A stretch of DNA of 64,000 nt from NCBI GenBank assembly GCA_049968235.1, contig JBMFRC010000014.1, positions 12,152 to 76,151 on the forward strand, in the 5' to 3' direction. The notes beneath the pieces were generated by a model. It saw nothing but the letters and a program-made list of their open reading frames with translations. It had not been told where the DNA came from and did no database searches. The stretch's first letter is position 1. Each line of letters begins with the position of its first letter. The stretch is from Candidatus Hydrogenedens sp. GTDB taxonomy: Bacteria; Hydrogenedentota; Hydrogenedentia; Hydrogenedentales; Hydrogenedentaceae. Positions 2,732-63,091 of the stretch are shown here, one piece after another. Both the position numbers and the translations under genes were made by a program.

Positions 2732-3774
2732 TGAGAAAACCTGTTTCTATTCAAAAATTATCTATTTATCGTTATGAAATCCCACTAAAGATAAAGGTTT
2801 TTATTCGAGGCATTTCATTTTCTTGCAAACGAGGACTGCTCGCAAAGTTTGAGGATACGGAAGGCAATGAATCTTGGGGAGAAATCTCTCTCTTACCACC
2901 AACAGAAGAAAAAATAAAGACCTGTATAGAATGGGTAGAAAAAAATTACCATTATCTTTTAGGTGAAATTGACTTTTCTTCTCTGGATACATACCCGGAG
3001 ATAAAATTCGCCATTATTAGTGCTCTTGATTACTTTAATTACGATACATCTGATTTTACAGATATTCCTGTGAAAGTAAATGCACTTCTTGCAGGTGAAT
3101 TCTATACTATTCTCGAAGAAGCGGAGAGAAAAAGAAGCCAGGGTTATTCAGTTTTTAAAATAAAAATGGGGGAATATTCTTTAACAACCGCAGTTGATTT
3201 GATATCCCGGATACAAACAATTCTTGGAAATGAAATACAAATTGTTTTAGACTTAAACCGGCAATGGGCATTACATAAAACATTAGACCTTATAGAACAG
3301 ATTGCAGATACAAGGATATTGTATATCGAAGACCCAGTTAGGAAATTAGAAGAATTGCCAAACTACTTCAATTTATCACCTATTAAAGCAGGAATTGATG
3401 AATTCCTTGAAGGATGGAATATTAAATTAGAAGAGATGTGCAAAAATTATTCGGAGAAAATAATCTTTGTAATGAAACCTTCTATACTTTATGGAACGGA
3501 AGTATGGCAAAAACTATGGACCAACAAATCTATTATGAAAGTTTTTACATCTGCATGGGAGACAGGTATCGGTTTGCGAGGAATACTAAATTTAATCTTC
3601 AAAAACAGAACGAATGTGGAATTTGTTGGTCTGGACACTTATTCCTACCTTAAAAATGACATAGTGAAACCTTTCCTACCAATCTTATTCCCTCAAATAA
3701 GCCCGCATATACTCAAAAAACCGTTTTCAATCATTGAAGAACAATTAGAAAAAATCCATTCATGGGAAGTATAA
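2731..3774 (+). CDS. menC: o-succinylbenzoate synthase (enolase superfamily)
   Basis: Enolase-superfamily catalytic pattern KxK (FKIKMG), DLNRQW, IEDP, GIDEF and MKPS. The ATG at 2731 overlaps the menA stop as TAATG (the ORF table begins at GTG 2719). men context. Confidence 0.75.
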   Translation: MRKPVSIQKLSIYRYEIPLKIKVFIRGISFSCKRGLLAKFEDTEGNESWGEISLLPPTEEKIKTCIEWVEKNYHYLLGEIDFSSLDTYPEIKFAIISALDYFNYDTSDFTDIPVKVNALLAGEFYTILEEAERKRSQGYSVFKIKMGEYSLTTAVDLISRIQTILGNEIQIVLDLNRQWALHKTLDLIEQIADTRILYIEDPVRKLEELPNYFNLSPIKAGIDEFLEGWNIKLEEMCKNYSEKIIFVMKPSILYGTEVWQKLWTNKSIMKVFTSAWETGIGLRGILNLIFKNRTNVEFVGLDTYSYLKNDIVKPFLPILFPQISPHILKKPFSIIEEQLEKIHSWEV

Positions 3775-3880
3775 AATTACTAAGGGTACTGTTTTTACAG
3801 AAAGATAAATACAATACAGGATAGTAGCAGAGGCACTCTTACCTGGAATTTTTGATTACATCTCTGTAAAGAAGTATGTA

Positions 3881-4669
3881 CTACCGCATTTCCTGTCCAC
3901 CGGTGACATTAATTGCCTGTCCGGTCATATAACTGGATTCATCACTGGCTAAAAATACGACCACATTGCATACATCTTCATATCGGCAGGGTCGTTTCAT
4001 AGGAACCTGGTCAATATACTTCTTCCGCACTTCTTCCTCAGTAATCCCCTGGTTTTTTGCATATTGTTTGAAAAGGCTTTCCGTCCATAATGGAGAGTCC
4101 AATAAATTTCCGGGACAAATCGCATTGACACGAATCCCATACTCGGCGAATTCCAGAGCCAGACTTTGTGTTACTCCAATCCCTCCAAATTTAGCTGCTG
4201 CGTAAGCGGAATTTTTGAAACTCCCTTTCTTACCGGATTTAGAGTTAATTTGTATCACGGTCCCATATCTATGGGGTAACATAACACGTATACCTTCACG
4301 AGCACAAATAAAATATCCGACCAGGTCAATATCAATAACCTTCCGCCATGCGGAAATATCAAAATTAATGGAATCCCCGGATATGAGAATTCCTGCATTA
4401 CATACCATGAGGTCAAGACCACCGAGGAGTTCAACTGCTTTATCTACTGCATTTTTAACCATTTCGGCATCAGTAATATCTACCTTCTCAGCGAAGATTT
4501 TGCGACCTGTTTGTTCTGCTATCCGTTTTGCAGTTTCCGACATTTTTTCAATGTTTATATCCCAGCCTACTGCGTCCGCACCTTCCTGTGCGAGTCGTTG
4601 CAATATGGCTTCACCCAAACCTTGAGCCGAACCTGTTACAATTGCTTTTCTACCTTTTAATCGTTCCAT
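3881..4669 (-). CDS. Short-chain dehydrogenase/reductase (SDR) family oxidoreductase
   Basis: TGSAQGLG Rossmann motif at the N-terminus, NAG, and the YAAAK catalytic Tyr-x3-Lys. Start chosen at MERLKGRK (GGAGAGG RBS upstream); the longer table ORF overlaps the upstream gene. Confidence 0.8.
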   Translation of the reverse strand: MERLKGRKAIVTGSAQGLGEAILQRLAQEGADAVGWDINIEKMSETAKRIAEQTGRKIFAEKVDITDAEMVKNAVDKAVELLGGLDLMVCNAGILISGDSINFDISAWRKVIDIDLVGYFICAREGIRVMLPHRYGTVIQINSKSGKKGSFKNSAYAAAKFGGIGVTQSLALEFAEYGIRVNAICPGNLLDSPLWTESLFKQYAKNQGITEEEVRKKYIDQVPMKRPCRYEDVCNVVVFLASDESSYMTGQAINVTGGQEMR

Positions 4670-6288
4670 GGCAAATACCTCTCCAATAATTTTTCTTCTG
4701 CTTGTTCTGTCCATGTTCCATCTTTTGAAAGATATTCACCCACTTCGGGTAGTATTTCCGGTATCTTTTCCAGTGGTATCAATGGCAAATCAGGTATTTG
4801 TGGATAAATGACAACTTTACCGGGAAACCGGGCTTCTTTAACCGCTTTCAGCCCCTCATGAGCAGAGAAAAGCCCTCCAATTGCAGCAACACTTCGATTT
4901 GTATCCCGAGAACCATTTTCTACGGATTGTAATACATGGTTTAAATCCGAAATTCTACTTCCACTACAACCAATAATTTTTACGCCCTCGCAAATCTTTT
5001 TTATTGAAACATTCGCAATAGTCCCTATTCCCAATCCGGCAAAAAGATTTACAAAACCGCAAGGTGCAGAAAAATCAACCGCTTGTGTTACCAGGGCAGG
5101 TACCGGTGCCAATAAAACGACATCTGTATAACCCTCCGGAGCAAATGATTCGAGATGCTTATTTAAGGCAGATGTGTCTGGAAAATCTTTAGTACAAACT
5201 GTAATCAATTCAACATTTCTTTTCTTTAATAATTCTGCCGACCGTTCTCGTAAATGTTCTAATCTTCCTTTATCTAAATCAGTAACTACTACCTTTTGGG
5301 GTCCATCTATTTTCTCTAAGGCTCGTTGGACATGCATCTGTCCCATCGGTCCACCGGCGCCAATAAACAAAGCAGTTCCATCGGGTAGTAGGTCTGACCG
5401 CATATTCTTTTCTTTTATTTCTTTTACAGTTATTCCTCCCCCAATAATTCGTTTATATTCATAATGAATAGACCCAACATCTACAGAAATATGTGTATGA
5501 GGCATTTCATCTGCGGAACCTAACACATAGATTGTTCCATGTGGGGCTAAATATTTAAACCACGCCTCAATCTCTTTTCCATTAGATACCTGCATGATAA
5601 TATCTCTGGATGTTTGTCCTTCTCCAGGGAATTGATTTGGAGCAAACATTTTAGCATGTGGAAAATCTTTTAATATCTGAGGGTCAGGATTTGTTGTAAT
5701 ATACCAGGGACTATCCGTATCAGGATAAATATGGTCTTCCAATCGATAGGACATTTCCACACATGCCCATGGTTCTGCTAATGCGGAGGCACTGTATCCA
5801 GTAGTAGATTTAACAGGTAATAAATAGCAACCATCATCCCCTGCTAAGGCTTTTTCATCTAAATAAGTATATTGTTGCATACCACCGGGAATAAGATACC
5901 CAAAGGCATATCCCACACCCTTATAATATATATCTGCCTGAACAATAAAACGGTCCCCCTTCTTAAAAGTTTTAGCCCACTGCGACCCTGCTTTTACAAC
6001 TGTTACCGCACATTCATGTCCCAATACGATAGGGTCTTCTGCCAAATTTCTACCCCGAAGACGAGGGTGATTGCCGCCCAGATTGATAATTTTAATATCT
6101 GAAAGACATATCCCTAACGCATCAATTCGTAATAAAATTTCATTATCGTTTGGTTCACGAAGAGGCAATAGAACAGGTTTGCCCTCTTTTCCAATATTTT
6201 CCAATCCGGAACCAAATACCTGCCATGCGTAATATTGTTCCGGAATAGGATGTTCAACATTTCGGAATTTTAATAACTTATTACTCAT
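4657..6288 (-). CDS. Long-form zinc-binding alcohol/polyol dehydrogenase (MDR family)
   Basis: GHECAVTV zinc-ligand motif, a downstream GAGGPMG Rossmann motif, and about 150 extra residues between the catalytic and NAD domains. Start at MSNKLLKF with GAGGAG RBS (the table ORF is longer). Confidence 0.75.
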   Translation of the reverse strand: MSNKLLKFRNVEHPIPEQYYAWQVFGSGLENIGKEGKPVLLPLREPNDNEILLRIDALGICLSDIKIINLGGNHPRLRGRNLAEDPIVLGHECAVTVVKAGSQWAKTFKKGDRFIVQADIYYKGVGYAFGYLIPGGMQQYTYLDEKALAGDDGCYLLPVKSTTGYSASALAEPWACVEMSYRLEDHIYPDTDSPWYITTNPDPQILKDFPHAKMFAPNQFPGEGQTSRDIIMQVSNGKEIEAWFKYLAPHGTIYVLGSADEMPHTHISVDVGSIHYEYKRIIGGGITVKEIKEKNMRSDLLPDGTALFIGAGGPMGQMHVQRALEKIDGPQKVVVTDLDKGRLEHLRERSAELLKKRNVELITVCTKDFPDTSALNKHLESFAPEGYTDVVLLAPVPALVTQAVDFSAPCGFVNLFAGLGIGTIANVSIKKICEGVKIIGCSGSRISDLNHVLQSVENGSRDTNRSVAAIGGLFSAHEGLKAVKEARFPGKVVIYPQIPDLPLIPLEKIPEILPEVGEYLSKDGTWTEQAEEKLLERYLPWND

Positions 6289-6310
6289 AGAAAACTCCTC
6301 AAAATATTTT

Positions 6311-7069
6311 TCAAAGTAATTTTTGACGATAATGTTCATCCGGTCGTGTATCAATTCTGCGAACCGCAGAATCACTTAAAAATTTAGGTCCACCACAAAC
6401 CGCAGTGCCTATAACAATCTGAGCACATTTCTCAGCCATAAGCGTTATCGCATGAACTTTACTGGGTGTAGGTCCCATAGCAATAAGTCCATGATTTTCC
6501 ATAAAGATAGCCTTAGGTAAAAATCCTTCAATTGCTATAAATTCCTTAACCTTATCACGAACAACACGCGCTAATGTAAGTCCCGGGTCAACATACGGAA
6601 TGAACACTGATTTTCTACCCAACACAACAATATGGTCGGGACATGTCCGTCCTTGAATATATTCCTCCGCTTTTTGGGAACATAAAATAGAGTTAACGAA
6701 TATAGGATGTGTATGCCCGATGAATATATATTGAGGGTATTGATATAAAACTGCATGTAATATTGTTTCTACAGATGGCATTCTTTTGTCATGGCTATCA
6801 GTTTTAGCCAACTGTAAAGTTTGTATCACATCTTCATCTGTTGCAGAAGGATTATCGAGCAAAGACAACACAGGTTCCATACGGACGCAAAGAAAATCCG
6901 TATTTTTTATTGTTTGCAATGTCGTGCCTGATGCTTTTATATAAAAATGTGCATCATCAATCCTTGCTGATGTATTCCCTTCTCCTAATATTGCCAGATG
7001 ATGTTCTGGTTGTCCTAAAAAATGACTCATACTTGTTAACTGTTCTAATATTTGTTCTGACATTGACAT
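6311..7069 (-). CDS. Class II aldolase/adducin-family protein (fuculose-/ribulose-phosphate-aldolase-like)
   Basis: GHTHP metal-binding motif and class II aldolase fold-like sequence. Start placed at MSMSEQ (AAGGA upstream). The 55-codon hydrophobic N-terminal extension in the table ORF looks spurious. Confidence 0.7.
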   Translation of the reverse strand: MSMSEQILEQLTSMSHFLGQPEHHLAILGEGNTSARIDDAHFYIKASGTTLQTIKNTDFLCVRMEPVLSLLDNPSATDEDVIQTLQLAKTDSHDKRMPSVETILHAVLYQYPQYIFIGHTHPIFVNSILCSQKAEEYIQGRTCPDHIVVLGRKSVFIPYVDPGLTLARVVRDKVKEFIAIEGFLPKAIFMENHGLIAMGPTPSKVHAITLMAEKCAQIVIGTAVCGGPKFLSDSAVRRIDTRPDEHYRQKLL

Positions 7070-7959
7070 ATCCTTCAAAGTTTGGCTCGTATTATATCGA
7101 ATTTTTGCCTTGAATTTGAAATGTGTCCCTTTACCTGCTTTGATAAGAGGAATATATATGACTGTTAAATAAAACATATATATAATAAAAAGATTATATA
7201 CAGAAAGGGTAAGTAGGAAAAAATAAAGCGACAAAAGGAATAGGTTAATTACCCGGTAAGGAAAAAATTAAAAGAAAAAAGGTAAATGTGCGATATGATG
7301 AAAGAGGTAAAGCAGGTGAGACTTTTAGATTATACAGTGTCACAACAAACACCGACATGATAAGAAAAATGATTGGGAGTGATGCAAGAGATAACCCTGT
7401 GGGAGAAATTGAAATGTAGATGAGTAGGAGGAAATGTATAGGATAAACGGGGGAGAGCGGAGGTTTCCATCCTTACTATTTTATGTATTGTTAAGAAGTG
7501 AGTAATGATTTCTCTGTGTTCTCTGTGGTTAATTATATTTTTTTCACCACGAAAGACATGGAGAGGCGTGGAGGATACAGAGGGTTACAGAGAGCATGGA
7601 GGTATTTATTTTATGATATGTATTTTTTTATTATTATTCCTTTTGAATTAAAAAGATTATGCCTTGTTTTTTTTATTTTAAGTTTTATAACAAGCATAAT
7701 ATAAATTCTACTAATATGCGGTATATGTAGATGCTATATATTTATTTGTAACTTTACACATGTGCATAATTTATAATAATTTAAATAATCTTTAAATTTT
7801 ATTTGACAAATATTGCTAAAGTATGTTAATTTTGTAAAAGACAATTGAATATTTATTAAGATTTATTTTTGATAAGGGCTAATTTGTGTGAGGACAGTAT
7901 CCTGCACTTATAGTTTGTTATGTTTATTAATCGAAACTTTTTAACAGAAGGAGTGGCTT

Positions 7960-10029
7960 ATGCAAAGGTTAAAATTGGTAATCGGTTTTCAATTATGTCT
8001 GTGGCTCTTTGTAATTGGAGCATGGGCTGATGCGCCCGCAAACTACACATGGACTAATGCCCCCGGAGGTGCATTTACTGCGTCAAGCGTGGATTTTGAA
8101 GCATGGATGACCAAATTGGCTCAATTCCAGTTTGGTGGTGATGCTGTCTTTGATTTCTTAGACCCGACGGATGCAGATAATAATGACAATGGTGTGCTGG
8201 ATGTATATGAGTTTGCTTTATTAACTGCAATTTGCAACGATACTTCACATCCGCTACACGACACAATTCATGAGGCTTTCAAAGCAAACTGGACTGCATT
8301 TCAATCTCATCAAGGTGCATTAGTTAATTCACTTGCCCCCGCATTGGCGATTATAGGTGGTGCGTATGCTACATTAGGCGATGGCGATTATGGCAGGACA
8401 CCTGCTGCATGGTTCTCAGGCTCCTGGGGCTCGGTAGCGGAAATTCTATATGGATTATCCTCCTACGGTTCTTCATGGGGTGCAGGTCAACCTGCGGAAC
8501 CACCGTATGTTCGTCGTCAATCATATATGTCTATGTGTGGCGACTTTGATAGTGATGGCGTAAAGAACATTAACGAATGGTACGGGCAGAGTGGCAATGT
8601 AGAAAACTATGTTTCTGCCGCAATGAACCCATCAGTTACCACAAGTGGAGAAGACCCGAACGGTGTCTGTGAGACAGGTTTACGCTGGGGCAAAACTTAT
8701 TTTTATAATCCTGCCAATCAACATGTATATTGGTTACAACCCTATAGTTTGCCATGGGAAATTGCTGAACAGGTTGCTACGGAACATAGCCTTGTGAACA
8801 ATTCAAGTGAAACTATAGCCATTCCAGGTCATCTGGTAACTATAGATGATTCTGCAGAAAATGCCTGGATTATGAGCACGGTGTATCCACAAATCAATAG
8901 TAACATGTGGATAGGTGCCACAGATAAACTTACAGAAGGACAGTGGATTTGGATTGGAACAGGTGAACAATTCTGGCAGGGTGCTGCCGATGGAACTCCC
9001 GTTGGTGGGAAGTATACGAATTGGAATTCAGGAGAACCTAATGATTCCAGTGGTGAAGATTATGGCGAAATTACCAGTAGTGGCGGTTGGAATGATAATA
9101 AAGCCAGTGCTACTCGTAGAGGTTTAGTTGAGTTCCCGAATGCATATCCCGATAGCAATACCAACGGTATTCCTGATTACTGGGAGCAATTCTCAGGAGG
9201 AGGTGGTGGCGAAGGAGAAGGAACCGTTGAAGGGACACCTGAAGGTACACCCGAAGGAACACCGGAAGGTGAAGCACCGTGTGAATTTGAAGGAAGGATA
9301 AATGACTCAACCTTAGGACAGGGTCCATTATTGGCTCAGACTTTAGAAAGTAATAGTTCGCAATTAAATGCCTTGCTAACTGCTTTAGATATGTTGAGTT
9401 GGTTCAACTGGGATATCGAGTATTTAGAAGAAGTTATTGCCATGATTCGTCCATATCCCGGAGATGGATTGAAAGATTCATGGAGTATGGCATTGTTAGA
9501 ATACTGCATCTGCCATCCCAATTTCCGCACCGATTTAAATATCCCGGCAGATTTTGATTACAACAAGACATTATTCGAGCAAGACTGCACATGGTTAGCC
9601 ACAAATGTTGACCCAATATTCGCTGTATTACCACCGATGGTAGGTGATGTAATGGCAGGGCTATTAGGTTCCAGTGTAGAAATGCGAACCACATGGAATG
9701 CTATATTCCTTGCATTAACAGGTGGTGCAGTCGGATTGCCGAGTGTAAATAACTACCGTATCTATGGAATGGCAAAGGCAAATGATGGTGCTATTGCAGC
9801 AAATGGTGACCTCGATGGTGACGGTAAGACGAACCTGCAAGAAGCACAGGAAGTCATTGCCGTGGGCGGTGGTATGGAATTATTTGTAAAAGCAGCCACA
9901 GATAAGACCAACATGTGGCCCGGCAATCCCGAAATTCCTGTCGGTGCAATTGCCATTATTGGTGCAATGACAGGTGTAATTGTGGCTGGAAGTTCATTAA
10001 TCTTAATTCGTCGACGTAAACAACTATAA
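7960..10029 (+). CDS. Secreted Ca-dependent C-type lectin domain protein with EF-hand-like loops and a PEP-CTERM-like C-terminal anchor
   Basis: Signal peptide ([25 protein letters not shown]). Canonical CTLD block [17 protein letters not shown]...NWNSGEPND...WNDNKA with EPN and WND motifs. Three 12-residue EF-hand/dockerin-like loops ([36 protein letters not shown]). (EGTP)n linker. C-terminus [44 protein letters not shown]. Confidence 0.6.
9229..9270 (+). repeat. Tandem 12-nt repeat encoding an (EGTP)n linker
   Basis: gaagggacacct / gaaggtacaccc / gaaggaacaccg / gaaggtgaagca, imperfect tandem copies inside the lectin gene. Confidence 0.8.
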
Positions 10030-10114
10030 TAACTTATTATTATGGCACCCGGTTGCTGTGATACCGGGTGCCAAAATGTGGTTTAATTTTAATATTAATG
10101 GAGGATATAGGCTT

Positions 10115-11008
10115 ATGAAACAGAGAAAAGGCTTTACTCTCATTGAACTTCTTGTTGTTATTGCCATTATTGGCATACTTGCGGCAATTTTATTGCCAGC
10201 ACTTGCTCGTGCTCGTGAGGCAGCGCGTCGTTCTTCCTGTCAGAATAACTTAAAGCAGATAGGTTTGTCTATGAAGATGTATGCTAACGAGGCAAAAGGA
10301 GAACGCTTCCCTACAGTAAGTATAGCAGGTGGAGATACTTGTGATGATATTCGCATTGATTTTATGTGGTGGGGACCGCAATTGTATCCAGAATATTTAT
10401 CAGACCTGAATGTTAATGTATGCCCATCCGATTCTGATGGTAAAAGGGCATATACCGATGGTCGCTGGCATTGCGGTGGGAATCCGGGTAATCCTATTTG
10501 CCCTTGCAGAATTGATGCTCTATCTTATATCTACATTTGCTGGACATTACGCGAACAGGATTATATGATGCCTGGTATGGACCCCAATGACCCAAATGTC
10601 TCTTCCTTCCAATTACCTATTAATTATATTAACCCGTTCTTCGTACAATTCCTTATGGACCTGGTAGCTGCGGTAAATGCTTCTCCAGATACAAGTACAG
10701 CACTGGGACTTGTAGATAAAGATTTTACATACAACACAGCAGATTCTCAAGGTAAGATAACCATGTATCGACTTCGTGAAGGAATAGAACGATTCCTTAT
10801 CACTGACATTAACAATCCTGCTGCAAGTACACAAGCACAAAGTGAAATTGCTTTCTTTTTCGATGGTATAGAAACAACTCCATCAGACTTCAATCATATT
10901 CCTGGTGGTGCTAATGTGCTTTATATGGATGGGCATGTGCAATTTGTTCGTTTCCCAACAGACCATCCTGCTAATAAAGTATTTGCTGCAATTATTGGAA
11001 ATGTCTAA
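10115..11008 (+). CDS. DUF1559 protein with N-terminal prepilin-type cleavage/methylation domain (pseudopilin-like, H-X9-DG-type C-terminus)
   Basis: [48 protein letters not shown]-terminus (class III signal, Gly-Phe cleavage site) and C-terminal [12 protein letters not shown] motif. GGAGGA RBS before the ATG at 10115. Confidence 0.8.
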
Positions 11009-11040
11009 TTAGATAAGATAAAAAATAATATTCTATATTG

Positions 11041-11078
11041 AAGACTGCTTCTATAAAAAGAAGCAGTCTTTCTTTTAA
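11041..11078 (+). terminator. Rho-independent terminator
   Basis: AAGACTGCTTCT-ataaaa-AGAAGCAGTCTT perfect 12-bp stem followed by TCTTTTAAT. Confidence 0.8.
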
Positions 11079-14162: not shown

Positions 14163-17100
14163 CTATTTAATAAAAATATCGTTCAGGGTAACATAACGCA
14201 AGTTACCAAATTGTGCAAGAGAGTCAGGGGTTATCCTGTTTAGTGGTAACATGACGCTGATAAGTCTCTTACTGGATTTAACTTTTTTATCATGGAACTG
14301 AATTAAATCTTGCAGGGTTAATTTCTGGATGCCTGCATACCATTGTTTTCTTGGGTCATCTTCAAACCCATGGAGATACCAGCCATATACACGTCCTAAT
14401 ATACTTCGGAATGGAACCTTATCCGTTTGATAGTCATTTAGGACAGATTCTTTCGCAAAACGGAAACGTTCTTCGGATACAGGTAGATTATCAAATAAAT
14501 GTAAAAAACATTCCAATGCATCTTTTAATTTATCGGGTTGTGTCTGGATAACACCAACCATTAAATCTTCATCACCTTTCCTGTATCCCCCAATATACTG
14601 GGCTCCTGCTACATAGGCTAATGCTCGTGCTTCCCTTAATTCTTGAAAAACAACTCCTGCCATACCACCACCAAAATATGAATTAAAAACCTCTATTACG
14701 GGTTCTTCTTCCATCGTAGATTCTTCCAATCCGAACTCTATTCGCACATTTGCCTGTGTGGTTTCTTTGTCCAGCATATACAACTGTGTGTTTTCTGGCT
14801 TTCGCGATTTTAAGTATATATAAGGGGGTGTATCTTTCAACAAGGATGAAAATTTTTTTGTTTTTTCTTTTTGTCCTAATTCCTTTTTTAAATAACTTTT
14901 ATAAAGTTTTGTTATATCTTTATGATTTAATGTGCCTGCATAAAAAATATGGTGTTTATAATTCAACAAATTTTTTGTTATATCCTGTAGTTCTTCAACA
15001 GATAATTTTTTCAAATCCTCTTCTGGAAGTAGGTTCAAATAGGCGGATTGTGTATCTAAACGGTTGAACTGCACCAATGCCCGCATCACCTCTTCCGGGT
15101 CCTTTTTGGAATCCTCTCGTTGAGTGAGAATAATTGCCTTTAACTCTTCCAGTACATCTTTTTCTACTTGAGGATGAAACATTACTTCCATTAATAAATC
15201 CATAGTTTCCTTAAAACGGTCGTCAAAGCCATTTAAGGAAATTACAGTTTCATTATTGATAGAACGGACATTAAATTCTGCTCCTAGTTTATACCATTCT
15301 TTTTTGAGGTCTTCTGCGGAAAGATAACGCGTTCCGGATTTTTCCAGTAATCGTAGAGCCACTGGAATTTTAGGATTGTGATAATTGCCTATATCTACCC
15401 GTATTTCAAAGCTGAAAATTTTATTCAACGGATTTTTGCAAAACCAGAAATCCAGTCCTTCTTTTTTCGGAAGATGAATGTAATCTTTCCCTTTTTTCAA
15501 GAAAACGGGTTTGCTTTCAGTCGTAGGAATGGATAAAATCTGCTGGGCAAAAGGAGAAAGTTTTGTGCTATCAATTGTTAATGGTGTTAACTTTGGTTTA
15601 GGGACATAGTTAATTTCACGCTCCCCATTCTTACGATAGCCTGCGACATATCCCTGCGAAAAATATTTTTTGGCAGTACTTATAATTTCATCTTTGGTTA
15701 TCTTTTCCATACGTTCAATTCGTTTCAAATGTTCCTGCCAATCTTCATGTGCGATGAACGCGTCCGTAAGTTCACTTACCCGTCCTTCGTTTGTTTCCCT
15801 CGAACGCTCCTTCATTTTTCGGAAGTCTGTAATAATTGCAGATAAAAGCCAATCTTCAAAGTTTCCTTCACAAAGCAGTTTTATTTGTTCTAACAATAAG
15901 TGTTCCACATCTTCCAAACTCTGTCCATCTTTCGGTACTCCCAATATATATTCAACACCTAAATCATTCAATTGCACAATAAAAGAGCCTGCTCTTCTAA
16001 CTTTTTGTTTTTGGGTCAGATTTAGATTAATTAGTCCTGCTACGGCGTTGTCTAAAATCATATCTATCAGAGCAATTTTATCGGCATCCGGGTGTAATTT
16101 GGGCACAGTGCGAAAAGCAAGTATTACTTCCGGTTCACCTTCAAATTGTATTTCTACCGAAATTCTTTCTTTCAACGGTTCATAACAATATGTAGAAATA
16201 GGCGAACAGATTTTGTTTCCTTCAATTTCCCTATTTGCTATTGGAGGTTTTTCCTTACTCCTTTCTTCGTTTGTTTTTTCTTTCCTTATTTCTGAAAAAT
16301 ACTTTGCAATAATTTCTATCGCCTCTGGAATCTTTATATCTCCAGATATTCCAATGGATAGATTTTCAGGCACATACCATTTCTCAAAGAAATTCTTGAT
16401 GTTCTTTATGGATGGATTTTTCAAGTGTTCTGGTTCGCCCAATACGGTTTGTGTCCCATAAGGATGGTCAGGGAACAACGCTTTATTGATTGTTTCCATC
16501 AACATTTGTTCACGATTATCCATAGCACGATTCTTTTCTTCATACACGGTTTCCAGTTCTGTCGCAAACAGACGGAAAATTGGTTTTGAGAATCGGTCGG
16601 ATTCTAACATTGCCCAGTGTTCTAAACACCCCGAAGGCAGTTCCACTTTGTATACTGTTTCATCAATCCATGTATGAGCATTAATCTTATCCCCTCCCAG
16701 TGATTTATAAACACGGTCCAATTCATTAGGAACTGCATATTTGCTTGCTTCTTGAGAAATTTGGTCAATTTCTTTGTAAATTTCTTCCCGTTTTTGTGTA
16801 TCTGTTGTTTGCCGATATTTTTCATACAACTCTTCAATTTTATCGAGTAGTTCCTTTTCTTTGGTGAAATCAATAGTTCCCAATCGTTCTGACCCTTTAA
16901 ACATCAGATGTTCAAAATAATGTGCTAAGCCGGTAGTTTCTGGCGGGTCATTCTGACTGCCTGTTCGAACAGCTATCTCTGCATAGAAACGAGGAACTTC
17001 ATGATTCTCTGTTAAATATACAGTTATTCCGTTGGCTAAACGATAAATATATACCTGCATGGAATCCTCAGGTTTGGGTTGATATACCAGTTGGTAGCCA

Positions 17101-17171
17101 TAAACGGAGCCTGTTGAACAGAAAACTACTGTGCTCATTGTTATTCCTATAAAAAAATGTTTCATATTCAT
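14163..17171 (-). CDS. Secreted M16 (insulinase/pitrilysin) family zinc peptidase, 1002 aa
   Basis: Signal peptide, then the inverted zinc motif HYFEHLMFKG (HxxEH) about 80 aa in. Its length fits a duplicated M16 active/inactive domain architecture. Confidence 0.8.
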   Translation of the reverse strand: MNMKHFFIGITMSTVVFCSTGSVYGYQLVYQPKPEDSMQVYIYRLANGITVYLTENHEVPRFYAEIAVRTGSQNDPPETTGLAHYFEHLMFKGSERLGTIDFTKEKELLDKIEELYEKYRQTTDTQKREEIYKEIDQISQEASKYAVPNELDRVYKSLGGDKINAHTWIDETVYKVELPSGCLEHWAMLESDRFSKPIFRLFATELETVYEEKNRAMDNREQMLMETINKALFPDHPYGTQTVLGEPEHLKNPSIKNIKNFFEKWYVPENLSIGISGDIKIPEAIEIIAKYFSEIRKEKTNEERSKEKPPIANREIEGNKICSPISTYCYEPLKERISVEIQFEGEPEVILAFRTVPKLHPDADKIALIDMILDNAVAGLINLNLTQKQKVRRAGSFIVQLNDLGVEYILGVPKDGQSLEDVEHLLLEQIKLLCEGNFEDWLLSAIITDFRKMKERSRETNEGRVSELTDAFIAHEDWQEHLKRIERMEKITKDEIISTAKKYFSQGYVAGYRKNGEREINYVPKPKLTPLTIDSTKLSPFAQQILSIPTTESKPVFLKKGKDYIHLPKKEGLDFWFCKNPLNKIFSFEIRVDIGNYHNPKIPVALRLLEKSGTRYLSAEDLKKEWYKLGAEFNVRSINNETVISLNGFDDRFKETMDLLMEVMFHPQVEKDVLEELKAIILTQREDSKKDPEEVMRALVQFNRLDTQSAYLNLLPEEDLKKLSVEELQDITKNLLNYKHHIFYAGTLNHKDITKLYKSYLKKELGQKEKTKKFSSLLKDTPPYIYLKSRKPENTQLYMLDKETTQANVRIEFGLEESTMEEEPVIEVFNSYFGGGMAGVVFQELREARALAYVAGAQYIGGYRKGDEDLMVGVIQTQPDKLKDALECFLHLFDNLPVSEERFRFAKESVLNDYQTDKVPFRSILGRVYGWYLHGFEDDPRKQWYAGIQKLTLQDLIQFHDKKVKSSKRLISVMLPLNRITPDSLAQFGNLRYVTLNDIFIK

Positions 17172-17330: not shown

Positions 17331-18965
17331 ATGTTTTCTCCCAATTCTTTTTTAGGAAGGCATCCTATTTTAAGATGGACACTAATAACCATTGTGTTAA
17401 TTATCGTTTTGTTCTTTTTATGGCTTTATTCACGCATGCGTGGACCATATCAAAATTATACACTTGACTTTTTAATTCCCGACCCTGCTTCTACACCGCA
17501 ACCCGGTGTCCTTGAAGTAGGCGTGGCTAAAAGGGATATTACTCCTATTCTTGACCTGTATGATACATGGGAAGATGTGAACAATAATGGGAAATTTGAC
17601 CCGGGTGTGGATACTTATGTAGATAAGAACAATAATGGGAAATTTGATGGTATATGGATAGCGGGTTTTGGGACTAATCGTCCTGCAAAAGGAATCCATG
17701 ACCCGCAATGGGTTCGTGCTATTGCGTTTCGTAATAATGGTGTTACTCTGGTTATGGCAAGTTTTGATGCCATCGGTATCTATCATAATGACTTTATAAC
17801 CATTCGCAAAAGTATAGACCCCGGTTTAAAGATAGACCATGTTCTGTTTTCATCTACCCACTGCCATGAAGTAGTGGACACCATGAAAATCTGGACTTTC
17901 TGGAAACGAATTAAAGGACTGGATATTCCGGGTTTCGGTTATGATGATAGGCACATGAAATTTATTCAGAAGCTGGCTAAAGAGGCGATAGAAGAAGCAG
18001 TCCGTAATCTGCAACCTGCGGATATGTATTGCACGAAAGTAGAAGTAGGACCGGAAGGATTTATTCGCGATTCTCGAAAACCGGAGGTAATAGACCCTTA
18101 TATGTATTTATTCCGATTCACGAAACCTAATACAGACGAAACTATAGCCACCTTTGTGTCATGGGGTAATCATCCAGAATCGTCAGGAAGTGAAAATAAT
18201 TACCTTTCCTCGGATTTCTGTCATACTCTTCGTGAAGGATTAGAAAATGGTGTCCCCGAACCCAATGGTGCCCCCGGTTTTGGTGGTATGTGTTTATATT
18301 TTCAGGGAATGGTTGGCGGTCTTATGACACAACTGGGGGTTGAAGTTCCAGACCGTTCCGGGAAGACAACATATAAAGAATCCTCGTTAGAAAAAGGCGA
18401 AGCATTGGGATATAATGTAGCCCTTGTAGCAATTAATGCACTCCGCGGACCCAATGTCTGGAAAAATGAAAACCCTCTGCTAGCAGTTTCTGCTAAAACA
18501 TATCTCGCTCCTATGCAGGGACACTTCAAATATGCAATTATGTTAGGACTTATTCATGAAGGATATTATTGGGGCGGTAAATCGAAAACGGAAGTCAATG
18601 TTGTGCGTATTGGCGATGTTATGATTACTACTGTTCCGGGCGAATTATACCCCGAAATTGTTCAGGGTAATATTGAAGCACTGCCGGGTAATGATTTCAA
18701 CCTGACTGCTCCTGTAGAAAATCCCCCTTTACGAATGGAAATGGAAAAAGAATCTAGGATGGCATTCGTTATCGGTTTAGCCAATGATGAGATTGGATAT
18801 ATACTTCCCCAATCGCAATGGGATACAAAGCCTCCATTTGTATATGGAAAGAGTCAATATGGTGAAGAGAACTCTGGCGGACCTGAAGTGGGGACAACCT
18901 ACCACAAGAACGCATTGGAACTTATCCGGCGAATGAATAAAGCCTATCCACGAAAGACGAATTAA
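17331..18965 (+). CDS. Membrane-anchored neutral/alkaline ceramidase-like hydrolase (tentative)
   Basis: N-terminal TM helix. GVAKRDITP...[13 protein letters not shown]...SSTHCHEV resembles the neutral ceramidase N-terminal catalytic region (GKADIT..., ATHTHSGP). Internal NNNGKFD duplication. Confidence 0.45.
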
Positions 18966-20538: not shown

Positions 20539-21444
20539 TTAATCACCACCGGTTTGACTATCCAGGAAACAAGCCCATAAACGAGAAACAGGGTTTGTTC
20601 CAGGATAACGCACAAACTCCACATGTCCGTCCATATATAAAACATTTCCGCCACCGGGAACATGATTCATATATTCGGGTTGGGAATTAACATCATCGGA
20701 CAATATCCATACTTCACTTTGGGCTTTGTTGGAAGCAGCAGGATTGTTAATATCTGTTATCAGGAATCGTTCAATCCCTTCGCGAAGCCGATATATTGTA
20801 ACAGTTCCTTGTTTTGCATCGGAGTCCAACAAACTAGCGTCTCCATTATTTGCCCAGTTTGCATAACCATTGTTGATTATCGTTAAAATGGCGGTTAAGA
20901 AGTCTGGGTTGAAATAGTTCATTGCATTAGTTTCATTAATTGCCGGGTCATTAACATCCTGTCCGGGTAGAACCATATCCTCATCCATTATTGCCCAACC
21001 ATAATAATTGTATGATTCCGCACTGAAACGACATGGATTTTTCTCATCCAGATTGGGGTCAGCATTACGGTTCCACCAACCATCTACAGTAACATGTGTT
21101 CGTGCAGTCGAATCCGATGGACATATTAAGATATTTGTATCTGTTAAATATTCTGGATACACAGCCCGTGCATTGAAAAATGCTTCAATAGAACCCCGCC
21201 TTTTGCAATCATCAGGCATAGTACGGTCCCCCTGCCATATTTGAATTGAGGGGTATCTTTCCCCTTTCGATTCATTTGAATACATCTTGAACACCAAACC
21301 TAATTGTTTAAGATTGTTTTGACAGGAAGACCGCCGTGCCGCTTCACGGGCACGAGCCAGCGCTGGTAAAAGGATAGCAGCAAGTATTCCGATTATCGCT
21401 ATCACAACCAGCAGTTCAATGAGAGTAAAACCTTTTTTTAACAT
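20539..21444 (-). CDS. DUF1559 protein with prepilin-type N-terminal domain (second paralog)
   Basis: [50 protein letters not shown] and C-terminal [12 protein letters not shown]. The N-terminal 45 aa are near-identical to the 10115 paralog but use different codons. Confidence 0.8.
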
Positions 21445-62434: not shown

Positions 62435-63091
62435 TTATCGTTTTTCCGGAAAAAAATGTGCTTCTACCATAGCACATAAGGCATGCCATATTGGCTGATG
62501 TCCTTCCTGAATTACTTTGGTGCTATTTCCGGGTGTCTTAATGCAGATATGACTGTGTTGAGCTATAAGACCGCCCGACGGACCGGTCAATCCGATGACA
62601 ATCCCATTATTTGCTCTTGCCACACTAATAGCATATAAACAGTTTTTGGCATTACCTGATGTTGATATAGCAAGCAAAACATCCCCCGGTCTAATTAATA
62701 CACTTAACTCCTGTGCAAAAGCAATATCTCGCAATGGGCAATCATTTTCAATGGCTGTTTTTAATGCACTGTTCATCCCTAAGGGAATAGCCCGTAATCC
62801 CGCTTCAAGATATTTTCCAATCTCTTCACCGGCAAATTCATTTGATAACTTTTCAAATAATAATTTGCCAATAGGTCGCTTTCGTTCAAAACTCTTAACC
62901 AATTCCCCCGCAATATGGAGAGCATCTGCGTAAGAGCCACCATTCCCACAGGTGAATAAAGTTCCACCCTGAGAAAAGCAATGAACCAGAATTTCATGTG
63001 TCCTCAAAATATCATCTGCACAAGTTTTAAGGTCGGGTCGGCGAGTTAATAAATCATCAAAAATTTCCCGTTCAAGTATAGATAAATTCAT
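62435..63091 (-). CDS. gmhA: SIS-domain phosphoheptose isomerase (GmhA/DiaA-like)
   Basis: TCGNGGSYADALH, ISTSGN and a C-terminal His/Glu region typical of GmhA. Confidence 0.7.
   Translation of the reverse strand: MNLSILEREIFDDLLTRRPDLKTCADDILRTHEILVHCFSQGGTLFTCGNGGSYADALHIAGELVKSFERKRPIGKLLFEKLSNEFAGEEIGKYLEAGLRAIPLGMNSALKTAIENDCPLRDIAFAQELSVLIRPGDVLLAISTSGNAKNCLYAISVARANNGIVIGLTGPSGGLIAQHSHICIKTPGNSTKVIQEGHQPIWHALCAMVEAHFFPEKR

Follow-up and report, generated by a model that had tools for sequence, protein, structure and literature searches.

The window analysed here is a stretch of 64,000 nucleotides (nt) from the genome of a Candidatus Hydrogenedens species (contig JBMFRC010000014.1). 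It contains an open reading frame (ORF) whose 689-amino-acid product, called the lectin protein below, combines a C-type lectin domain with two copies of a helical module and with a short C-terminal tail that was also found on many unrelated secreted proteins of the same lineage. The gene and the features of its product are located in Table 1. An original prediction made for this ORF had quoted a series of motifs, and both the ORF and all of these motifs were present at the expected residues. The orthologues in Candidatus Hydrogenedens genomes were 78–88% identical to the lectin protein. The N-terminus resembled a signal peptide with a likely cleavage site between AWA and DAP, in agreement with the secretion that had been predicted; this call was made by reading the sequence. 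The residue following AWA, D24, was nearly invariant in an alignment of ten family sequences. The family libraries used throughout were Pfam 2025 and NCBIfam 20.0.

Table 1. Location of the lectin-protein gene, of the elements of its product and of the adjacent features in the window. HMM, hidden Markov model; pLDDT, predicted local distance difference test.
Feature	Residues	Position (nt)	Strand	Basis
Shine-Dalgarno-like AAGGAG, 6 nt 5' of the ATG		7948–7953	+	direct sequence reading
Lectin-protein gene, ATG to TAA	1–689	7960–10029	+	ORF list
Signal-peptide-like N-terminus	1–23	7960–8028	+	basic n-region, hydrophobic core and A-x-A, by eye
DxDxDG-type loop 1	73–84	8176–8211	+	pattern match
Helical module, copy 1	74–225	8179–8634	+	HHalign against copy 2; helices in model
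DxDxDG-type loop 2	195–206	8542–8577	+	pattern match
C-type lectin domain, cysteine-free	~245–392 (Pfam match 290–383)	8692–9135	+	Pfam PF00059, PDB phmmer, Foldseek
DxDxDG-type loop, the fourth to be recognised	398–409	9151–9186	+	pattern match, family conservation
Gly/Glu/Thr/Pro-rich flexible linker	413–440	9196–9279	+	pLDDT <50; length varies among orthologues
Helical module, copy 2	441–650	9280–9909	+	AlphaFold2, module HMM
DxDxDG-type loop in module copy 2	617–628	9808–9843	+	pattern match
Juxtamembrane motif	653–662	9916–9945	+	conserved in the family and in 93 tail-profile representatives
Gly/Ala-rich transmembrane helix	663–683	9946–10008	+	hydrophobic run; predicted helix
Basic cluster RRRKQL	684–689	10009–10026	+	sequence reading
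Stable RNA hairpin, 16 nt past the stop codon		10044–10073	+	fold of 10028–10115
Prepilin-type gene, DUF1559 / H-X9-DG domain		about 10116–11008	+	Pfam, NCBIfam

The central part of the protein matched the Pfam family Lectin_C (PF00059) with a score of 40.5 bits against a cutoff of 22.6 (E 5e-10). The motif WIGATD was located at residues 317–322 (8908–8925), EPN at residues 359–361 (9034–9042) and WND at residues 377–379 (9088–9096). Residues E359, P360, N361, E366, W377, N378 and D379 were invariant in the ten-sequence family alignment, in which identities range from 35 to 85%. The best solved relatives by sequence, in a phmmer search of the PDB, were CEL-I (1.6e-11), MBP-A (4.6e-8), DC-SIGNR, SP-D and Mincle. 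E359, N361, E366, N378 and D379 aligned with the sugar ligands of Ca2+ site 2 of MBP-A, which we take to be E185, N187, E193, N205 and D206, and D362 and D367 occupied two positions of Ca2+ site 1. The C-type lectin domain that had been predicted is present, and its EPN/E/WND Ca2+ site is complete. In C-type lectins the EPN motif selects equatorial 3,4-diols, as found in mannose, N-acetylglucosamine (GlcNAc), fucose and glucose.

The description of this domain as "textbook animal-type" was overstated, as all four canonical cysteines are absent. Y368, A382 and V390 replace three of the cysteines of MBP-A, and the fourth is missing as well. The two disulfides define the canonical animal form of the domain, not the fold. 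The long-loop region holds a bacterial-specific insertion with an invariant QFW motif. The AlphaFold2 model of the whole protein, built with the ten-sequence alignment, was poor (pLDDT 61.5) and was not used for the sugar site. When this weak model was compared to the PDB with Foldseek, the 50 matches listed were all C-type lectin domains (E 5e-4 to 7e-3), with target TM-scores of 0.5–0.68 for a model in which the pLDDT at residues 320–368 was below 50.

EPN-type domains had been thought uncommon in bacteria, which proved to be an overstatement. A census based on the narrow patterns NWN[SGD]GEPN and ...G[GT]WND, with one genome per species, matched 588 stretches and yielded 510 confirmed loci, which is a lower bound. 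By record title these loci belonged to Planctomycetota, Verrucomicrobiota, Bacteroidota, Cyanobacteria, Patescibacteria, Alphaproteobacteria, Myxococcota and others. The domain of the lectin protein adds a member to a bacterial group that is already known and fairly widespread. Literature searches on bacterial EPN lectins and on the combination of a lectin with PEP-CTERM returned nothing relevant.

Four DxDxDG..D..E loops start at residues 73, 195, 398 and 617 of the lectin protein, compared to an expectation of 0.002 matches to the pattern [DN]x[DN]x[DN]Gxx[DN]xx[ED] per shuffled protein of the same composition. Three EF-hand-like loops had been announced; all three were found, but the loop at residue 398 had been missed and only the first one (residues 73–85) fits the strict 13-residue PROSITE pattern PS00018. 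The loops at 195, 398 and 617 fail at position 8 and are of the DxDxDG type rather than strict EF-hands. Loop residues were at least 90% conserved in the family alignment; in loop 398–409, D398, G403 and P405 were invariant and I404, D406 and E409 nearly so. In the AlphaFold2 models a helix starts after each loop, near loop position 9. These loops probably hold structural Ca2+.

Each copy of the helical module opens with such a loop, degenerate in copy 2 (residues 499–508), and closes with another. A BLASTP comparison of the N-terminal and C-terminal halves of the protein aligned the loop region only (E 0.016), and a profile–profile comparison was needed to show the duplication. HHalign of residues 74–225 against residues 499–650 gave a probability of 96.7% and an E-value of 3.4e-10 over 139 columns, showing that the two modules flanking the lectin domain are homologous and result from an internal duplication. 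Copy 2 modelled together with the tail, using an alignment of 50 sequences, reached a pLDDT of 94.7 and a predicted TM-score (pTM) of 0.88. No fold relative of the module was found among the solved structures of the PDB, and no Pfam or NCBIfam model covers it. Between the lectin domain and copy 2, a 12-nt tandem repeat (9217–9269, 4.4 copies) encodes the (EGTP)n linker, which had been correctly predicted, with three EGTP units at residues 424–435. The module core also has a match with 88% identity in P0119, a protein of only 213 amino acids from a 236-kb NCBI contig, which could represent a paralogue that has been truncated, or else a split gene or pseudogene of a related genome.

The C-terminus of the lectin protein is made of NPEIPV (656–661), a hydrophobic stretch of 22 residues (662–683) and RRRKQL (684–689), and the helix predicted in the model of copy 2 and tail covers residues 661–688. 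Outside the lectin domain this tail was the best-conserved element of the family, with the succession W-P-G-N-P-x-[LI]-P-[VA]-G, helix, RRKK. P660 was invariant in the family alignment, and W653, G655, N656 and P657 were at least 90% conserved. Word-index searches with the C-terminal module and with the module core gave only five and six matches, mostly fragments, which made an exhaustive profile search necessary. A profile of 38 positions, restricted to the tail, was searched against 1.84 billion representative proteins (E<=1e-3) and retrieved 93 cluster representatives, proteins of 41–1212 amino acids nearly all matched at their extreme C-terminus. Their tails were strikingly uniform, with FWPGNPxLPVAG followed by a Gly/Ala-rich helix such as GLGLLAGACALGGA and then by IRRKK. 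The consensus of 101 motif-aligned tails, from the family and from the profile matches, was W-P-G-N-P-x-L-P-V-A-G. The proline of LPV was usually situated 26–27 residues from the C-terminal end, and three to five Arg or Lys were present in the last eight residues of 94 of the 102 family and tail-bearing proteins.

An HMM of the copy-2 region matched 74 of 89 tail-bearing representatives, and in the remaining 15 the module is lacking. Module and tail together thus make up the usual cassette, and the tail can stand alone. In a Pfam scan of 71 tail-bearing proteins, Lectin_C was the commonest domain (eight proteins); the other cargo included Ig_3, PKD, Big_2, Big_7, beta-helix, LRR, Laminin_G_3, Peptidase_M43 and CBM9. 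Signal-peptide-like N-termini were seen, by a crude test, in 49 of 65 tail-bearing proteins of at least 250 amino acids starting with methionine. Being short, stereotyped, strictly C-terminal and joined to unrelated cargo domains, the tail appears to behave like a sorting signal. Most of the taxon-labelled tail-bearing members belonged to Hydrogenedentota, and three co-assembly bins with such members were titled Nitrospiraceae or Nitrospirales (titles as recorded, unverified).

Variants of this arrangement were observed at two other loci. In a metagenome contig (Ga0272441_10000283, L086; positions 3732–10640), two tandem genes each encode a lectin domain, PKD, the module and the tail. They are directly followed by a PMT_2 gene, coding for a polytopic glycosyltransferase similar to dolichyl-phosphate-mannose protein mannosyltransferases; the presence of a mannosyltransferase beside putative mannose-type lectins is suggestive, in this single case. 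In a bin titled Nitrospiraceae (title unverified), two tandem proteins of about 280 amino acids (L023, 5565–7571) possess a signal peptide, an EPN/WND lectin domain and an immunoglobulin (Ig) domain. They end with a minimal tail, APGTLPVGG or LPASG followed by a Gly/Ala-rich helix and RRR, and have neither the WPGNP motif nor the helical module.

We propose with moderate confidence that the lectin protein is a Ca2+-dependent lectin displayed at the cell envelope by a lineage-specific anchoring or sorting cassette, for which a dedicated partner is likely. In this model, the protein would be exported by the Sec pathway using the signal peptide of residues 1–23. The exported part would be arranged in the order module copy 1, lectin domain, (EGTP)n linker and module copy 2, the latter next to the membrane. 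The site formed by EPN, E366 and WND would bind, through Ca2+, sugars with equatorial 3- and 4-hydroxyls, such as mannose, GlcNAc, fucose or glucose, and the loops bounding the modules would provide structural Ca2+ sites. In the tripartite tail, WPGNPxIPVG would be followed by the Gly/Ala-rich membrane helix, and RRRKQL would lie on the cytoplasmic face. The lectin domain would be exposed at the surface, and the tail might be cleaved. The tail, usually with the module, would be a lineage-specific cassette that the Hydrogenedentota attach to many extracellular domains. Because its sequence is so stereotyped, recognition by a dedicated partner is suggested; in analogy to exosortase, archaeosortase or sortase, the most likely candidate would be an enzyme that carries out processing or transfer. 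The surface glycan-binding adhesin of the original prediction remains the best reading, with an anchoring system that is different and uncatalogued: tail and module vary the theme of C-terminal sorting signals in a form absent from Pfam 2025 and NCBIfam 20.0. More tentatively, the module together with FWPGNPxLPVAG, the Gly/Ala helix and RRKK might form an undescribed sorting or anchoring system, specific to the Hydrogenedentota and having its own processing enzyme, in which the module would serve as a pedestal of new fold or as an envelope-attachment domain. This enzyme might represent a new family, or else an exosortase or archaeosortase that has diverged strongly.

Several observations weigh against the display of a functional lectin by such a cassette. 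No sorting enzyme was found among the window ORFs of at least 150 amino acids (43 non-nested ORFs, of which 35 were scanned by Pfam or NCBIfam and eight were recognised from their sequence only). None was found in the flanks of about 30 tail-bearing or related genes, a search that covered the neighbours of three family members (P0002, P0005 and P0009) and, in 24 metagenome loci, the polytopic ORFs located next to tail-bearing genes. Only transporters, a PMT_2 glycosyltransferase and ATP-binding cassette (ABC) permeases emerged from these searches. A crude screen of 1.6 Mb of loci for at least five membrane helices and the motif CSG[ILMVF] gave a single match, a ribose ABC permease. No neighbour gene was conserved across distant family members. 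In the lectin domain itself, there is no cysteine between residues 238 and 440, so both canonical disulfides are missing, and the long-loop region (residues 320–368) has a pLDDT below 50 in the whole-protein model. Finally, if an outer membrane is present and the tail is unprocessed, the lectin would face the periplasm and not the outside. A gene for a GmhA-like sedoheptulose-7-phosphate isomerase at 62435–63091 in the window (125 bits, under the equivalog cutoff) is a weak hint of heptose/lipopolysaccharide-type envelope chemistry, which bears on the question of the outer membrane.

It is possible, although we think it somewhat doubtful, that the tail is simply an uncleaved type I anchor, whose motif and Gly/Ala helix (small-xxx-small) drive oligomerisation and produce a multivalent lectin on the cytoplasmic membrane. 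The regular spacing of Gly and Ala in helices such as GLGLLAGACALGGA would fit this explanation, and so would the restriction of the matches with known models to the helix and basic part, as well as the failure to find a processing enzyme in the window ORFs and in the flanks of about 30 genes. Simple anchors, however, rarely keep both a 10-residue extracytoplasmic motif and an end point 0–3 residues from the basic cluster across proteins that are at most 30% identical or unrelated elsewhere. The tail is also found directly after Ig-type domains without the module, in the manner of portable sorting signals.

The original prediction likened the tail to PEP-CTERM, a signal that an exosortase of the XrtA/EpsH type would cleave, so that the lectin becomes linked to the cell surface or exopolysaccharide. 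The layout on which this was based is confirmed: a motif containing proline precedes the membrane helix, and Arg and Lys residues cluster right at the C-terminal end. The Gly/Leu/Ala-rich helix also resembles PEP-CTERM helices. True PEP-CTERM tails exist on planctomycete lectin-domain proteins, and weak sub-threshold matches to midcut_by_XrtH and IPTL-CTERM were obtained (E 0.02–0.06). The PEP-CTERM model TIGR02595 was tested on the full lectin protein, on its isolated tail and on 18 further tails of the class, and stayed below its cutoff in all tails. At E<=10 it was not listed for the tail of the lectin protein nor for nine family tails, and in a second set of ten tails it gave at most 10.8 bits, in four tails, against a cutoff of 16. 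The positive control, the tail of a planctomycete lectin protein (L037), reached 28.9 bits in the same run as the nine family tails. There is no P-E-P before the helix, where the lectin protein has N-P-E-I-P-V-G, and the motif conserved in the class is WPGNPxLPVAG. No exosortase-, archaeosortase- or rhombosortase-type NCBIfam model reached its cutoff in 19 tails; the Loki-, IPTL-, VPXXXP- and CoaP-CTERM models and midcut_by_XrtH remained below theirs and aligned with the helix and basic part only. Membership of the tail in PEP-CTERM was rejected on these grounds, and a PEP-CTERM signal in this position now seems improbable. Exosortase-dependent processing could not be upheld either, as no exosortase family match was found in the scanned window ORFs of at least 150 amino acids or in the ORFs flanking the related genes. 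In the literature searched, no link appeared between Hydrogenedentes and exosortase or any sortase.

The possibility that the lectin-like domain does not bind sugar, and that the protein is a structural component of the envelope, is a little less probable still. Many C-type lectin-like domains have proteins, ice or minerals as ligands. This reading would agree with the loss of both disulfides, with the bacterial-specific insertion and with the poor modelling of the long-loop region. C-type lectin-like domains that do not bind sugar generally lose the ligand residues of Ca2+ site 2, which is established knowledge on this family. The lectin protein has all five site-2 ligands in addition to D362 and D367 at the aligned site-1 positions, and the ligands stay unchanged in family members with as little as 35% identity. 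Least probable of all is that a sortase-type transpeptidase links the protein to the cell wall through [LI]P[VA][AG]G, taken as a variant form of LPXTG or LPXAG: the consensus LPVAG resembles these motifs and LPXTG_anchor (TIGR01167) gave the sole above-cutoff score (16.8 bits against 15.9, isolated 39-residue tail), but this alignment is limited to model positions 12–33, helix and basic part, and skips the motif, the score falls to 14.9 bits on a fragment of 84 residues, the model is not listed for the full protein, the lectin protein has IPVGA in place of LPVAG, conservation extends upstream to FWPGNP unlike in sortase signals, and no Sortase family match was found among the annotated neighbours.

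The neighbours of the lectin gene are ordinary chromosomal genes, for menaquinone biosynthesis, dehydrogenases, a GGDEF protein, an M23 peptidase, SecDF, FtsQ/Z and others. The window is 82–86% identical in DNA sequence to a contig of Candidatus Hydrogenedens terephthalaticus (L001) and syntenic with it except for one inversion. The segment 16090–28089 is in reverse orientation on that contig relative to the block carrying the lectin gene, and an inversion or rearrangement therefore separates the two species. Horizontal transfer of the lectin gene was considered and set aside: its GC content at third codon positions is 0.345 compared to a window mean of 0.294, only about 1.5 standard deviations above, which is not evidence of transfer. 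The intergenic segment upstream of the gene (7235–7959, 725 bp) is AT-rich and contains an ORF of 68 amino acids, probably spurious, as well as several promoter-like hexamer pairs in a number not above chance expectation.

Downstream of the stop codon, the segment 10028–10115 is predicted to fold with -25.6 kcal/mol (z -2.45), the hairpin having a perfect stem of 9–11 bp (GGCACCCGG...CCGGGTGCC). No clean U-run follows this stem and a consensus terminator scan gave no call at this place; the hairpin may act in weak termination, in attenuation or in stabilising the RNA ahead of the next gene. That gene, of prepilin type, matched N_methyl and SBP_bac_10 in Pfam and TIGR02532 and TIGR04294 in NCBIfam, and a strong terminator-like site is located 3' of it at 11040–11071. 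It may be co-transcribed with the lectin gene. The adjacency of the two genes is kept in two close relatives only (L080 and L081) and is absent in L082 and L084; more generally, DUF1559 and GGDEF neighbours were common to the closest relatives only. Genes of the prepilin-type DUF1559 / H-X9-DG class are typical of Planctomycetota-like genomes, and a second one, with an N-terminal methylation motif, is present in the window at 20539–21444. Two other genes are kept beside the locus in relatives, one for a double M16 peptidase of 1002 amino acids (14163–17171) and one for a ceramidase-like protein (17331–18965; Pfam Ceramidase_alk, 29.2 bits, under the cutoff of 32.1).

Members of the Hydrogenedentota, a phylum that is still uncultured, are frequent in anaerobic digesters and in sediments, and to our knowledge nothing is known of their cell surface. 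A portable C-terminal cassette appears to mark the surface proteome of this phylum, and a profile of only 38 positions was specific for it in a search of 1.84 billion proteins. Its recognisable cargo is most often a C-type lectin domain. The tail profile offers a handle for annotating proteins now called "hypothetical", and the tail gives phylogenetic profiling a concrete starting point in the search for the putative partner sorting enzyme. The module is a confidently predicted all-helical domain without relative among solved structures. A lectin domain that is free of disulfides and keeps the full EPN Ca2+/sugar site would serve as a useful comparison in lectin engineering and in studying how the fold evolved outside animals.

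Among the known systems, PEP-CTERM (TIGR02595) shares with the tail the extreme C-terminal placement, the proline motif, the Gly/Leu/Ala-rich helix and the Arg/Lys cluster, and each is carried, within one lineage, by many secreted proteins that are otherwise unrelated. They differ by the motif, FWPGNPxLPVAG in place of PEP, with no HMM match at threshold, and by the conserved helical module of about 170–300 amino acids that usually precedes the tail, which PEP-CTERM proteins do not have. In addition, no exosortase corresponding to the tail was identified in the window ORFs and the flanks of related genes. The combination of lectin and PEP-CTERM exists in another phylum, Planctomycetota, where two proteins (L037, from Thermoguttaceae, and L075) are, like the lectin protein, secreted, with an EPN/WND lectin domain and a C-terminal sorting tail in about 740 amino acids. 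Their tails are canonical PEP-CTERM signals (VPEP...RRRR), unlike that of the lectin protein; only L037 was scored, with the result given above. The tblastn alignments covered only residues 194–406 and 258–392 of the query, with no match reported past the lectin domain. The true PEP-CTERM of these planctomycete lectins therefore supports an analogy with the tail, not its membership in the family. The same logic of signature, helix and basic cluster is found in PGF-CTERM/archaeosortase A, IPTL-CTERM, VPXXXP-CTERM, Loki-CTERM, GlyGly-CTERM/rhombosortase and LPXTG/sortase, which also serve multiple cargo types within one lineage; they differ from the tail in that every alignment to these NCBIfam models was limited to the helix and basic part.

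The 12-residue D/N-x-D/N-x-D/N-G-x-x-D/N-x-x-E loops of the lectin protein are similar to those of EF-hands (PS00018), dockerins and bacterial TSP3 repeats (PF18884). The Pfam TSP3_bac and Dockerin models gave no score on the lectin protein, and its loops show neither the pairing of EF-hands nor the duplicated segment of dockerins. Unlike the loops of these three groups, they cap a larger helical domain which has no classification. The lectin domain shares the WIGxTD core with the animal carbohydrate-recognition domains (CRDs) of MBP-A, DC-SIGN/DC-SIGNR, SP-D and CEL-I, as well as the full set of site-2 ligands made of EPN, a Glu five residues further and WND. The sequence EDYGQF of the sea-cucumber CEL-I aligns opposite EDYGEI in the lectin protein. 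Unlike the animal CRDs, the domain contains no cysteine and carries the QFW insertion, and it is flanked by two bacterial helical modules where the animal CRDs have a collagen or coiled-coil neck.

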